From: a virus
Lineage: Duplodnaviria > Heunggongvirae > Uroviricota > Caudoviricetes
DNA length: 30,513 bases
IMG/VR virus record: IMGVR_UViG_2778261535_000002
Direction: 5' to 3' (one strand)
Below the pieces are notes generated by a model, which worked only from the letters and a program-made list of their open reading frames with translations, ran no database searches and had not been told where the DNA came from. Positions 7,443-30,219 of the stretch are shown here, in pieces. The position numbers and the translations under genes were made by a program. Position 1 is the first letter of the stretch. Each line of letters begins with the position of its first letter.

Positions 7443-7838
7443 TTATTGCATTCTGGCCAGGCCACGTTCTGTCATTTCGGCTGCCACACCGGCAGAGACA
7501 CGAAACGCCGTTCCCGGCAGCACAAATGCCACAGGTTCATCCCGCGAGGCGTGAAGTGCATCAGTATGCAGCGTCACCAGTGCCACGACCGTGACCAGAG
7601 CAGCCGTATCAGTCACGGTACCTGGCTGCGCTGACACCACCTCATTTTCATGCCCGGTCAGCGCATTTTCCGGGCTGACAGACGTGTCCTGACCGGCAGC
7701 GTCATCCGTGTCATCAAGCTCCTCTTCCAGCTCTGCCACACGGAGCGCCAGTTCTTCTTTCGTCCCCGTCAGGCTGACATCACGGTTCAGTTGCTCACCC
7801 AGCACCTGAAGACGGGCAATCAGTTCATCTTTCGTCAT
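7443..7838 (-). CDS. FI: DNA packaging protein FI
   Basis: ORF 7443..7877 trimmed to the MTKDELIARLQ start, which is preceded by GGAGGAG; about 131 aa. Confidence 0.8.
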   Translation of the reverse strand: MTKDELIARLQVLGEQLNRDVSLTGTKEELALRVAELEEELDDTDDAAGQDTSVSPENALTGHENEVVSAQPGTVTDTAALVTVVALVTLHTDALHASRDEPVAFVLPGTAFRVSAGVAAEMTERGLARMQ

Positions 7839-9302: not shown

Positions 9303-9908
9303 TTACACTGGTGTGTTCAGCAAATCGTTAACGGCATCAGATGCCGGGTTACCTGCAGCCAGCGGTGCCGGTGCCCCCTGCATCAGACGATCCAGCGCAG
9401 TGTCACTGCGCGCCTGTGCACTCTGTGGTGCTGCGGCCAGAATGCGGCGGGCCGTTTCCACGGTCATACCGGGGGTTTCGGCCAGCACGCGGGCCTGTTC
9501 TTCGCGTCCGTGAGCCTCCTCACAGTTGAGGATCCCCATAATGCGGCTGTTTTCTGCCGCAACCGCAGCGGTGATCTGCGCGTTCACGTCCGGCTGCGCC
9601 GCGCTGGCGTTTTCGCCCTCCGTCGCTGGCACCACGTCAGTAACGTCAGCCTGCGAAGCAGTGGCTGAAACAGTTGTTGATTGAGTCTCTTTGGTCATTC
9701 GCCCTCCTGAGAGACGGGATTTACGTGCATCCAGTGCATCACGCATAACGGTGATCGCATCGGTGCTGTTGACAAGTTCATCAGCCAGTCCGGCATCAAT
9801 GGCCTCCTGACCGCTGTACACTGCAGCCTCGGTATCCAGCACAGCCTGCACGGACAGGCCGGTATATGCCGACACCTTCTGCGCAAACATCCGGCGGGTT
9901 GCATCCAT
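9303..9908 (-). CDS. Nu3: capsid scaffolding protein Nu3, in-frame internal start within C
   Basis: In-frame Met at C residue 239 (MDATRRMFAQKV) gives the C-terminal 201 aa, as in the lambda C/Nu3 nested arrangement. Confidence 0.7.
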   Translation of the reverse strand: MDATRRMFAQKVSAYTGLSVQAVLDTEAAVYSGQEAIDAGLADELVNSTDAITVMRDALDARKSRLSGGRMTKETQSTTVSATASQADVTDVVPATEGENASAAQPDVNAQITAAVAAENSRIMGILNCEEAHGREEQARVLAETPGMTVETARRILAAAPQSAQARSDTALDRLMQGAPAPLAAGNPASDAVNDLLNTPV

Positions 9909-15595: not shown

Positions 15596-15802
15596 TCAGT
15601 CAACCACCAGGGAATAATCCTTCATATTATTATCGTGCTTCACCAACGCTTCCTCAATTGCTCTGAATGCTTCCAGAGACACCTTATGTTCTATACATGC
15701 AATTACAACATCAGGGTAACTCATAGAAATGGTGCTATTAAGCATATTTTTTACACGAATCAGATCCACGGAGGGATCATCAGCAGATTGTTCTGTATTC
15801 AT
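15596..15802 (-). CDS. hypothetical protein (lambda right-end small ORF equivalent)
   Basis: 68 aa ORF at the position and size of a small ORF near the lambda right end; AT-rich. Confidence 0.5.
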
Positions 15803-16086
15803 TTTGTCGCTCCATGCGCTTGCTCTTCATCTAGCGGTTAAAATATTACTTCAAATCTTTCTGTATGAAGATTTGAGCACGTTGGCCTTACATACATCTG
15901 TCGGTTGTATTTCCCTCCAGAATGCCAGCAGGACCGCACTTTGTTACGCAACCAATACTATTAAGTGAAAACATTCCTAATATTTGACATAAATCATCAA
16001 CAAAACACAAAGAGATCAGACCAGATTGAAACGATAAAAACGATCTTGCAAACTACGCACTCTCATATCATATGGAAGGTTTATCT

Positions 16087-16497
16087 ATGGATCAGGTAGT
16101 CATTTTTAAACAAATATTTGATAAAGTTCGAAACGATTTAAACTATCAATGGTTTTATTCTGAGCTAAAACGTCACAATGTCTCACATTACATTTACTAT
16201 TTAGCCACAGAGAATGTTCATATTGTATTAAAAAATGATAATATAGTGTTATTAAAGGGCCTAAAAAACATTGTGTCTGTCAAATTTTCAAAGGATAGGC
16301 ATCTTATAGAAACGACCTCTAATAAGCTGAAATCCAGAGAGATCACATTTCAGGAATACAGAAGAAACCTTGCTAAAGCAGGAGTTTTTCGGTGGGTTAC
16401 AAATATCCACGAACAAAAAAGATATTACTATACCTTTGATAAATCATTACTCTTTACTGAAAACATACAGAGCACATCACAAATATTTCCACACTAA
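16087..16497 (+). CDS. hypothetical protein, possibly DUF1398/YbcV-like
   Basis: ORF 16072..16497; start moved to the MDQVVIF Met at 16087, which has GGAAGG upstream; AT-rich moron-like gene. Confidence 0.45.
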
Positions 16498-16795: not shown

Positions 16796-17053
16796 CTACT
16801 TCGCTTTTGCTTCCGCTCGCTTACGCCGGCGCTCTTCTTTCCTCTCGGCTTTTGCCATGTCCATGAATGCCTGCATGATCGAGTTCCGCATCATGTAGCT
16901 AACAAAGTGATGATTGACACAGCCGTTGAGGCGCAGCTGCTCGCCAAACTCATCCACCGAGGCCAATGCTTCCATCATGCCCTTCTCGCCTTTCATGAAC
17001 TCTGAGAAGTCGCGCCCCGCTCTGGAGGCGCATTCAATGACACGATCAATCAT
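16796..17053 (-). CDS. hypothetical protein, Lys/Arg/Glu-rich C-terminus
   Basis: 85 aa ORF whose ATG overlaps the stop of the upstream KilA-N gene (ATGA), implying co-translation. Confidence 0.5.
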   Translation of the reverse strand: MIDRVIECASRAGRDFSEFMKGEKGMMEALASVDEFGEQLRLNGCVNHHFVSYMMRNSIMQAFMDMAKAERKEERRRKRAEAKAK

Positions 17054-17750: not shown

Positions 17751-18005
17751 TTATTTCAGGCATTGCGTCCTGATGTACTCCTGCATTTCGATAGTCGCGT
17801 TAGCATCAGCAAGCTCCTTTGTATATCTGGCGTCGAGTTCTGCTACATCATGTTGACGCTTCTGCATGTCAGCGATTGTGGATGTGGCCTTATCGCGCTG
17901 CTCTTTGTAGGTAATGGCGTTATCACGGTAATGATTAACAGCCCATGACAGGCAGACGATGATGCAGATAACCAGAGCGGAGATAATCGCGGTTACTCTG
18001 CTCAT
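17751..18005 (-). CDS. Rz: i-spanin Rz, naturally shortened (84 aa versus 153 aa in lambda)
   Basis: N-terminus [34 protein letters not shown] matches recalled lambda Rz; C-terminus ends ...RTQCLK with the conserved Cys; the central part is missing. Confidence 0.8.
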
Positions 18006-19027: not shown

Positions 19028-19103
19028 TGGTGCTGGTTAACGGACTTGAACCGCTACCCATTCGCTTACAAGGCGACTGCTCTACCATTGGAGCTAAACC
19101 AGC
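19028..19103 (-). tRNA. tRNA-Thr, anticodon UGU, with encoded CCA
   Basis: Hand-folded cloverleaf: 7/7 acceptor pairs (GCTGGTT/AACCAGC), 4 bp D stem, anticodon loop CTTGTAA, T arm AGCGG-TTCAAGT-CCGTT, discriminator A, CCA. Confidence 0.7.
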
Positions 19104-19108
19104 ATGTT

Positions 19109-19183
19109 TGGCGGGACAGCGTGGACTCGAACCACGATAAGAAGGTTAACAGCCTTCCGTAATGACCTTTATACGACTGACCC
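19109..19183 (-). tRNA. tRNA-like gene, probably tRNA-Asn (anticodon GUU), slightly atypical
   Basis: Acceptor stem 6/7 paired, D stem 3 bp plus one mismatch with GG in the loop, perfect anticodon stem GAAGG/CCTTC with loop CTGTTAA, T arm CGTGG-TTCGAGT-CCACG, discriminator G, CCA. Confidence 0.5.
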
Positions 19184-19246: not shown

Positions 19247-19765
19247 CTAAATGGATAATTGCATGTCAAGGCTTTTAACAGCAACATGCTTAACTTTCTC
19301 AACACGTTTACGCATTTTGAAAGCATTTTGCATTGGCTGGTACAAAACAAATAACGACGCTTTCAGGATGTCGTCAATTTCGTTTCTACAGGTTGCCAGT
19401 GAAGGTTTTCTCCATCCCTCGCCACCACGTCCACACATCTTGCGTGGCTTTGCAGTCGCGTGATAGTAGGATGCAATTGCTCGCTTAGATGAACCATGAG
19501 CGTAGTAGCTGAGGAGGATGCCAAAGGCTTTCTTGTCAATGCACATGACGGAATCGACGACCTGAGAAATCAACATTCCATCATCATCATTGCACATTGG
19601 CCTTGTCATAACTCTTCCCGGCTCTACGCTCTCCATGAACTTCGCTATTACGCTGCTCATACGCTTTTCCAGACGACCTGAATAAACCCATGCGCCCCAC
19701 AGTTCAAGCCAGCCATTCAGCCACTCATGCTGTTCTTTGGTGAGGTTTAGTTCTCTTATGCCCAC
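19247..19765 (-). CDS. putative late-gene antiterminator Q, not lambda type
   Basis: 172 aa ORF in the Q slot between ninI and the lysis cassette; sequence is unlike recalled lambda Q (207 aa). Confidence 0.55.
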
Positions 19766-25543: not shown

Positions 25544-25753
<210 letters not shown>

Positions 25754-25770
25754 TTAGTACATGCAACTAT

Positions 25771-25834
25771 TATCACCGCCAGAGGTAAAATAGTCAACAC
25801 GCACGGTGTTAGATGTTTATCCCTTGCGGTGATA
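25771..25834. promoter_or_regulatory. OR: right operator OR1-OR2-OR3 with divergent PR and PRM
   Basis: TATCACCGCCAGAGGTA (25771..25787), CAACACGCACGGTGTTA (25795..25811), TATCCCTTGCGGTGATA (25818..25834); all three match recalled lambda OR sites. Confidence 0.9.
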
Positions 25835-25841
25835 GATTTAA

Positions 25842-26558
<717 letters not shown>

Positions 26559-27866: not shown

Positions 27867-28024
27867 AGCATTCAAAGCAGAAGGCTTTGGGGTGTGTGAT
27901 ACGAAACGAAACATTGGCCGGAAGTGCGAATCCGGATTAGCTGCAAATGAGCCAATCGTGGGGTGTTTTCGTTCAGGACTACGACTCCCACACACCACCA
28001 AAGCTAACTGACAAGAGAATCCAG

Positions 28025-28348
28025 ATGGATGCACAAACACGCCGCCGCGAACGTCGCGCAGAGAAACAGGCTCAATGGAAAGCAGCAAATCCCCTGTTGG
28101 TTGGGGTAAGCGCAAAACCAGTTAACCGCCCTATTCTCTCGCTGAATCGCAAACCGAAATCACGAGTAGAAAGCGCACTAAATCCGATAGACCTTACAGT
28201 GCTGGCTGAATACCACAAACAGATTGAAAGCAACCTGCAACGTATTGAGCGCAAGAATCAGCGCACATGGTACAGCAAGCCTGGCGAACGCGGCATAACA
28301 TGCAGTGGACGCCAGAAAATTAAGGGAAAATCGATTCCTCTTATCTAG
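28025..28348 (+). CDS. N: antiterminator N
   Basis: ORF 27947..28348 trimmed to the MDAQTRRRERRAEKQAQWKAANPLLVGVSAKPVNRPIL start (107 aa), recalled lambda N with its Arg-rich motif. Confidence 0.9.
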   Translation: MDAQTRRRERRAEKQAQWKAANPLLVGVSAKPVNRPILSLNRKPKSRVESALNPIDLTVLAEYHKQIESNLQRIERKNQRTWYSKPGERGITCSGRQKIKGKSIPLI

Positions 28349-29480: not shown

Positions 29481-29849
29481 ATGTCAAACATCAAAAAATA
29501 CATCATTGATTACGACTGGAAAGCATCAATAGAAATTGAAATCGACCATGACGTAATGACAGAGGAAAAACTTTACCAGATTAATAATTTCTGGTCAGAC
29601 TCTGAATACCGACTCAATAAACACGGCTCTGTATTAAATGCTGTATTAATCATGCTGGCGCAACATGCTCTGCTTATAGCAATTTCAAGCGACTTAAATG
29701 CATATGGTGTTGTGTGTGAGTTCGACTGGAATGATGGAAATGGTCAGGAAGGATGGCCTCCAATGGATGGTAGCGAAGGAATAAGAATTACCGATATCGA
29801 TACATCAGGAATATTTGATCCAGATGATATGACTATCAAAGCCGCCTGA
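29481..29849 (+). CDS. ea10: Ea10 (putative single-stranded-DNA-binding protein)
   Basis: 122 aa ORF, same length and position as lambda Ea10. Confidence 0.8.
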   Translation: MSNIKKYIIDYDWKASIEIEIDHDVMTEEKLYQINNFWSDSEYRLNKHGSVLNAVLIMLAQHALLIAISSDLNAYGVVCEFDWNDGNGQEGWPPMDGSEGIRITDIDTSGIFDPDDMTIKAA

Positions 29850-29921: not shown

Positions 29922-30086
29922 ATGCAATATGCCATTGCAGGGTGGCCTGTTGCTGGCTGCCCTTCCGAATCTTTACTTGAACGAATCACCCGTAAATTAC
30001 GTGACGGATGGAAACGCCTTATCGACATACTTAATCAGCCAGGAGTCCCAAAAAATGGATCAAACACTTATGGCTATCCAGACTAA
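29922..30086 (+). CDS. cIII: CIII (FtsH inhibitor)
   Basis: 54 aa reading frame from the ATG at 29922, translating [54 protein letters not shown], recalled lambda CIII. Confidence 0.85.
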   Translation: MQYAIAGWPVAGCPSESLLERITRKLRDGWKRLIDILNQPGVPKNGSNTYGYPD

Positions 30087-30219
30087 ATTCACTATCGCCA
30101 CTTTTATTGGCGATGAAAAGATGTTTCGTGAGGCCGTCGACGCTTATAAAAAATGGATATTAATACTGAAACTGAGATCAAGCAAAAGCATTCACTACCC
30201 CCCTTCCCTGTTTTTCTAA
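30055..30219 (+). CDS. kil: Kil (host killing, FtsZ inhibitor); start uncertain, in-frame ATGs at 30055 and 30070
   Basis: Frame ends ...[44 protein letters not shown]; overlaps the cIII 3' end and the gam 5' end as in lambda. Confidence 0.7.

Follow-up and report, generated by a model that had tools for sequence, protein, structure and literature searches.

The window analyzed here is the entire 30,513-bp E. coli draft contig NMHT01000057.1 (GCA_002511955.1), assembled from short reads, which carries a lambda-like prophage whose late genes lie on the minus strand (Table 1; the locus listed as L004 in the exact-protein look-up corresponds to window positions 7751–28005 in reverse). The lysis genes follow the order S-R-Rz with overlapping stops and starts. 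The S holin has the same length in all carriers of the allele described below and in the intact relatives, and the counterparts of the R endolysin are annotated in the relatives as glycoside hydrolase family 24. The third gene follows directly after the endolysin gene, overlapping its stop, and encodes an Rz of only 84 residues. Genes of lambda length are found for the head (Nu1 181, A 641, W 68, B 533, C 439, D 110, E 341) as well as for the tail (Z 192, U 131, H 853, M 109, L 232) and, going by these ORF lengths, the rest of the late operon looks undamaged. The DUF1398 gene and its small companion, situated between the lysis module and the terminase genes, are transcribed against the late operon; at the same position the E. 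coli EA2 prophage has a DUF1398 gene with an adjoining YlcI/YnfO family gene. In the immunity region, the NYN-domain gene occupies the slot that lambda uses for rexAB, and its product may be a prophage-expressed defence nuclease.

Table 1. Coordinates of the features of the window discussed in the text.
Feature	Position	Strand	Remarks
S holin/antiholin, 107 aa	18462-18785	(-)	PF05106 Phage_holin_3_1; lambda-type dual start (MKM...); intact
R endolysin, 158 aa	18002-18478	(-)	lambda-type transglycosylase; length equal to lambda R; intact
Deleted Rz (i-spanin remnant), 84 aa	17751-18005	(-)	ATG start; 4-nt overlap with R
Rz1 (o-spanin) stub, 16 codons	17756-17806	(-)	start codon and AAGGAG Shine-Dalgarno sequence retained
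Deletion junction ...ACTATCGAAA/TGCAGGAG... (coding strand)	between 17786 and 17785	(-)	from the alignment with intact alleles
KilA-N/ORF11CD3 protein, 165 aa	17050-17547	(-)	3' of Rz, where lambda has bor
85-aa ORF, very basic C-terminus	16796-17053	(-)	after the KilA-N gene
Q antiterminator	19247-19765	(-)	late operon
pR'-like promoter TTGACA-18-CATAAT	19269-19240	(-)	upstream of the tRNA pair
tRNA-Thr(TGT) and tRNA-Asn(GTT)	19028-19183	(-)	between Q antiterminator and S holin
DUF1398 protein (141 aa, PHROG 'head protein' label) and 79-aa ORF	15729-16497	(+)	between lysis module and terminase genes
cI-like repressor	25845-26558		NYN gene directly downstream
NYN-domain protein, 285 aa	26686-27543	(+)	Pfam NYN 6.8e-9; phrog_5783; weak PADLOC HEC-09 match
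N-like antiterminator	27947-28348		
SieB superinfection-exclusion homologue, 184 aa	28349-28903	(-)	PF14163 1e-29; opposite the N-like antiterminator
DUF2528 protein	29481-29849		
Kil homologue	29929-30219		

Comparison of the 84-residue Rz with family profiles reveals that its residues 1–73 match positions 1–80 of the 154 in phrog_13 (E = 1.4e-35) and that PF03245 is matched at positions 7–52 of 126 (33.3 bits for a cut-off of 25.4), both profiles thus being covered over their N-terminal halves only. Judging from these matches, the protein would be a member of the lambda Rz family by descent, and not a functional one. The closest intact relatives are found in the E. coli EA2 prophage and in the phages mEp234, ECP1 and HK022. 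Rz and Rz1 are overlapping genes whose products disrupt the outer membrane in the last step of phage lysis. In the intact HK022/HK97/mEp234 type, a 145-aa i-spanin (PF03245 / phrog_13) contains, embedded in the +1 frame, a 61-aa Rz1 lipoprotein. The EA2 counterpart is annotated as a 145-aa 'lysis protein' whose +1 frame encodes a typical Rz1, a lipoprotein of 61 aa that reads MLTRLSKVSVLMFLLVVSAC/KSPPPVQSQRPEPAAW..., and the Rz1 of the intact relatives reads MLTRLSKVSVLMFLLVVSAC/KSPPP.... A length of 145–147 aa is usual for Rz, as nearly all of the best 120 of 3,951 homologues fall in this range. The original prediction had taken the 153-aa lambda Rz as its yardstick; the internal shortening to 84 aa that it described is real, whereas the proper reference is the 145-aa HK022/mEp234-type protein.

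The lesion was mapped by pairwise and five-way DNA alignments (EA2, mEp234, ECP1, lambda). They reveal one single blunt, in-frame gap of exactly 183 bp, or 61 codons, which removes codons 74–134 of the 145-aa Rz and is bordered by flanks near-identical to the intact alleles of EA2, mEp234 and ECP1; the first 219 nt and the last 36 nt of the window gene are 96–99% identical to the HK022/mEp234 type. Each of the intact IMG/VR loci aligning contiguously across the junction has exactly 183 extra bases there, and the top-scoring DNA matches, whether to complete E. coli genomes or to phage records, are two-piece alignments with approximately 181–184 extra bases in the subject. The deleted segment begins with GTCTCC and ends with CTACC, so that its ends share no microhomology, and neither microhomology nor repeats accounting for the deletion end points were found in the alignments with intact alleles. 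A hybrid Met codon (Met74) is formed at the junction and the reading frame is kept. We therefore consider, from the alignments, that a single illegitimate, blunt and microhomology-free deletion of 183 bp would have hit both spanin genes: the deleted stretch also contains, in its +1 frame, the nested Rz1 gene, so that everything of the o-spanin past codon 7 was lost in the same event. What is left of Rz1 consists of seven native codons (MLTRLSK), followed by nine out-of-frame codons and a stop. This stub has no hydrophobic core of a signal peptide, no lipobox Cys (the intact allele reads LLVVSAC) and no Pro-rich domain, and hence neither of the two attributes of the o-spanins of the Rz1 family (PF06085), namely the signal peptide with its lipobox, typical of an outer-membrane lipoprotein, and the short periplasmic Pro-rich domain to which the C-terminus of the i-spanin binds.

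The window cassette thus shares with the HK022/mEp234 type the position after S and R, the transmembrane domain (TMD), the proximal part of the first coiled coil (CC1), the ten C-terminal residues, and the start codon and Shine-Dalgarno sequence of Rz1, but is devoid of 61 Rz codons and of all functional parts of Rz1. With respect to lambda (Rz 153 aa, Rz1 60 aa), what remains of Rz shows 78% identity in the aligned stretch and the cassette has the same architecture, whereas lambda Rz has a seven-residue insertion in CC1 and another distal half, and bor takes the place of the KilA-N gene downstream. The domain map of lambda Rz comprises a TMD (residues 1–24), CC1 (27–87), the hinge L2 (89–120) and the second coiled coil CC2 (121–150), with essential helices at approximately residues 60–90 and 130–140 (Cahill et al., PMC5295617). 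When the 84-residue protein is placed on this map, it is made of the TMD (residues 1–24, identical to lambda Rz), proximal CC1 (25–73), Met74 and the last ten residues with the C-terminal Cys. CC1 is kept up to about lambda residue 80, that is, for the most part, while the distal end of CC1, the whole of the L2 hinge and almost all of CC2 (approximately lambda residues 81–144) are lost, and the missing distal CC1 overlaps the mutationally most sensitive stretch of lambda Rz. An i-spanin is characterized by an N-terminal TMD (N-in, C-out) and by two periplasmic coiled coils, joined by a flexible hinge, that together extend as far as the o-spanin; here the TMD is present, the hinge is absent and CC2 is reduced to about the last ten residues. 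Of the periplasmic cysteines available to lambda Rz for intermolecular disulfides (C99 and C152), the equivalent of C152 is kept as Cys82 and that of C99 was deleted together with the hinge; in lambda one Cys is enough, but in the full-length complex only (PMC6139136). Most of what had been proposed from first inspection of the locus agrees with this anatomy: the N-terminal transmembrane region and the Cys-containing C-terminus are retained in the alignment with lambda Rz, the embedded Rz1 frame is destroyed, and the ATG at the Rz1 position opens about 16 codons lacking a signal peptide and a lipobox. The statement that the central coiled coil is absent is only approximate, most of CC1 (residues 25–73) being present.

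The original prediction further held that no o-spanin is encoded in the window and called for a search for a small lipobox-bearing ORF or a unimolecular spanin. This search covered the 30.5-kb window; the contig does not include the distal tail, att/int and part of the early-left operon, which make up about 15 kb of the prophage. All possible starts in the six frames were scanned for lipoprotein-type N-termini, the Rz1 of the intact locus being recovered as a positive control. The scan found neither an o-spanin nor a unimolecular spanin elsewhere in the window, and in particular no credible ORF of the T1 gp11 type, with an N-terminal lipobox and a C-terminal TMD. Two candidate lipoproteins were rejected: one (9526–9684, plus strand) is antisense inside the head protease/scaffold gene, the other (25729–25872, minus strand) lies over the cI/cro operator region. 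When the window was searched by tblastn with the Rz1 of lambda and that of the HK type, only the seven-residue stub was recovered, and the match of lambda Rz was confined to residues 1–77. The prediction therefore stands on this point, no full-length Rz1-like lipoprotein ORF being present in the window. The KilA-N and 85-aa genes were considered as a spanin replacement and discarded: both follow an intact Rz in EA2 and ECP1 and are therefore not replacements for it. Similar KilA-N-type neighbours are also found 3' of Rz in mEp234. In place of a spanin, a lysis cassette may contain a disruptin (phiKT gp28 type), a small cationic amphipathic protein that disrupts the outer membrane. Compared with the intact relatives having the same KilA-N and 85-aa neighbours, the cassette of the window has no added gene.

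Since the window is a short-read draft contig of 30.5 kb, the 183-bp gap might be thought to result from a collapse during assembly or from sequencing errors. Against this, the deleted segment contains no collapse-prone repeat, and the same junction and the same protein recur in many independent assemblies from differing projects and pipelines. The exact 84-aa protein has been deposited under SQL33139.1 and SQM44004.1, labelled 'putative phage endopeptidase', and the index of the assembly collection has it in 75 blocks. We read 24 carrier contigs, from independent NCBI, ENA and Logan assemblies: carriers were found in GCA_030006335, GCA_958336295, GCA_907166325, GCA_020669175 and GCA_004172265, in the ENA MEGAHIT-style contig k141_6006 (ERZ27235136), in Logan contigs and in two IMG/VR UViGs. 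With the exact protein present in dozens of assemblies made independently, an artefact is refuted, and we leave practically no probability to this explanation.

The deletion allele is rare. It was found in none of 5,426 complete E. coli genomes, a search in which a carrier would have topped the ranking and in which the best 40 matches were all two-piece, in none of 50,697 phage records, and neither in the GTDB species representatives nor in the JGI metagenomes searched. In IMG/VR, two contigs have the deletion and more than 120 the intact junction among the matches listed. Inspection of ten carrier places revealed at least seven different mosaic prophage contexts. The backbones vary in their repressor/cro pairs, in the content of the nin region and in Q, of which there are three types; the head modules are either of the lambda type or of the DUF1441/ClpP-capsid type, and one carrier is a head-less remnant. 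In two carriers (L002 and L009) the homology to the window ends near the tRNA pair. In the head-less remnant (locus L005, 12599–20255, in GCA_958336295.1) the deleted cassette is accompanied by an Nu1 fragment abutting tail-fibre, tail-assembly and invertase genes. This remnant adjoins ydfJ/ydfI/ydfZ-like chromosomal genes, a neighbourhood which we take to be the position of the Qin prophage on the K-12 map.

Despite this variety of contexts, the carriers differ by only 0–1 SNP in the 255-bp gene and by 0–5 SNPs over the 1.2-kb block formed by Rz, the KilA-N gene and orf85, the amino-acid identity of Rz being imposed by the exact-sequence look-up and that of the flanks not. The endolysin gene just upstream has at most eight differing sites among carriers, and intact relatives show 7–9 SNPs within the same 255 bp. 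The KilA-N and 85-aa pair is almost invariant across carriers, the near-identical 1.2-kb block travelling with the deletion. The carriers form one tight haplotype, and the simplest history suggested by these sequences is that the deletion arose once. Indeed, the identical recurrence of a blunt deletion free of microhomology is unlikely, which argues for a single event followed by homologous recombination. The allele would then have moved among co-resident or related lambdoid prophages by this route, as a passenger that probably has no effect on fitness or a slightly harmful one. Among 78 fetched loci matching both flanks, none has the whole flanking haplotype of an immediate intact parent. We found no description of this specific Rz/Rz1 allele in the literature. 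Other lesions are seen in the same family: several database proteins of 127–129 aa (P0106, P0118 and others) join the N-terminus of Rz to the C-terminus of Rz1 and match PF03245 plus PF06085. They are frameshift fusions, representing other independent natural lesions or sequencing errors; such independent fusions within one family suggest that spanin decay in prophages recurs.

Taking the above together, we read the locus with good confidence as one in which a deletion has abolished the function of the two-component spanin Rz/Rz1, in a lambda-like E. coli prophage that otherwise looks intact. The conditionally defective lysis, or the dependence on a spanin from elsewhere, put forward in the original prediction would follow from published lambda genetics (PMC6139136, PMC5295617). 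Loss of Rz or of Rz1 by knock-out leads to an absolute lysis defect, the cells becoming fragile, spherical and surrounded by an intact outer membrane; in lambda this defect is hidden by shaking unless millimolar divalent cations are added (PMC6139136). The Rz-Rz1 complex has been estimated at 25.5 nm (130 Rz and 40 Rz1 periplasmic residues), approximately the span of the periplasm (PMC5295617). In the 84-residue remnant, by comparison, about 60 residues are periplasmic, which as a helix would extend over roughly 9 nm, and the product is most likely inert. Upon induction of the window prophage, the holin and endolysin steps would go ahead, leaving the inner membrane permeabilised and the murein degraded, but with no bridging complex the fusion of inner and outer membranes could not occur, and cells would become fragile spheres bounded by the outer membrane, from which the release of virions would need shear, low divalent cations or the complete Rz/Rz1 pair of a co-induced prophage. 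The allele can therefore be read as a natural Rz/Rz1 double null. The laboratory Rzam, Rz1am, nonsense and deletion mutants of lambda (Cahill et al. 2017) belong to the same predicted phenotype class, with spherical cells and a defect that shear conceals and millimolar Mg2+ uncovers; unlike these, the window allele is natural, kills both genes in one event and circulates in wild E. coli prophages, its phenotype being a prediction only. When lambda Rz was knocked down by CRISPRi, the efficiency of plating fell, the two values given being 5e-4 and 0.15 (PMC10695390).

The occurrence of the allele in at least seven backbones and in dozens of assemblies indicates that it has not been eliminated quickly, and this persistence leaves room for trans-complementation or for weak natural selection on spanins. 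One may thus envisage that the spanin-null cassette behaves as a cheater, rescued by the complete Rz/Rz1 pairs of other lambdoid prophages co-induced by the SOS response; the deletion would then be effectively neutral, which would explain its persistence and its spread between prophages. Regions resembling this cassette are present in E. coli genomes with a median of 2 and a maximum of 10 per genome, and the range of backbones, among them the head-less Qin-position remnant, implies that prophages resident in the same cell have recombined. Such a rescue nevertheless assumes co-induction and its timing, and the allele is still rare by the counts of complete genomes and IMG/VR contigs given above (0 of 5,426; 2 against more than 120), so that we hold it to be possible but rather unlikely. 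A broader version, in which a natural spanin-null cassette of single origin was recombined into the at least seven backbones and persists either as the user of a shareable 'public good' or because spanins are naturally dispensable, appears improbable to us. Less likely still is its variant in which the shortened Rz interferes with the spanins of rival phages.

An in-frame deletion that spares the TMD, the greater part of CC1 and the Cys tail contacting Rz1 would also fit a retained or new activity, and the shortened protein could accordingly be pictured as a dominant-negative poison of the spanins of rival or co-resident phages, or as a factor delaying the rupture of the outer membrane. The preservation of the frame, of the dimerisation-prone CC1 and of the extreme C-terminus, which in lambda contacts Rz1, is consistent with such a role, as is the amino-acid sequence shared by all carriers, an identity imposed by the look-up. 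However, an in-frame outcome is expected by chance in one case out of three, the lysis-defective missense mutants of lambda Rz that were tested are not dominant-negative (PMC5295617), and the allele is rare, with no sign of selection other than its hitch-hiking on the neighbouring block. That the 84-residue protein has a separate function is thus very improbable in our view, and the loss-of-function reading is retained.

With respect to its biological meaning, the feature corresponds to known biology, namely gene decay, in the form of the ordinary loss of a well-understood gene pair, the one mildly notable point being that a single broken allele was handed on from one prophage backbone to several others. 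For the prophage of the window, lysis competence should not be assumed, and the annotation of an 84-aa 'lysis protein' or 'endopeptidase' conceals the loss of two genes. At the same time, the locus offers an Rz/Rz1 double null already made by nature, in a phage that otherwise looks intact, and this could be used for asking how important spanins are beyond the shaker flask and whether lysis is complemented among co-resident prophages. Finally, the presence of the allele in several backbones illustrates how defective alleles may travel through recombination between prophages.
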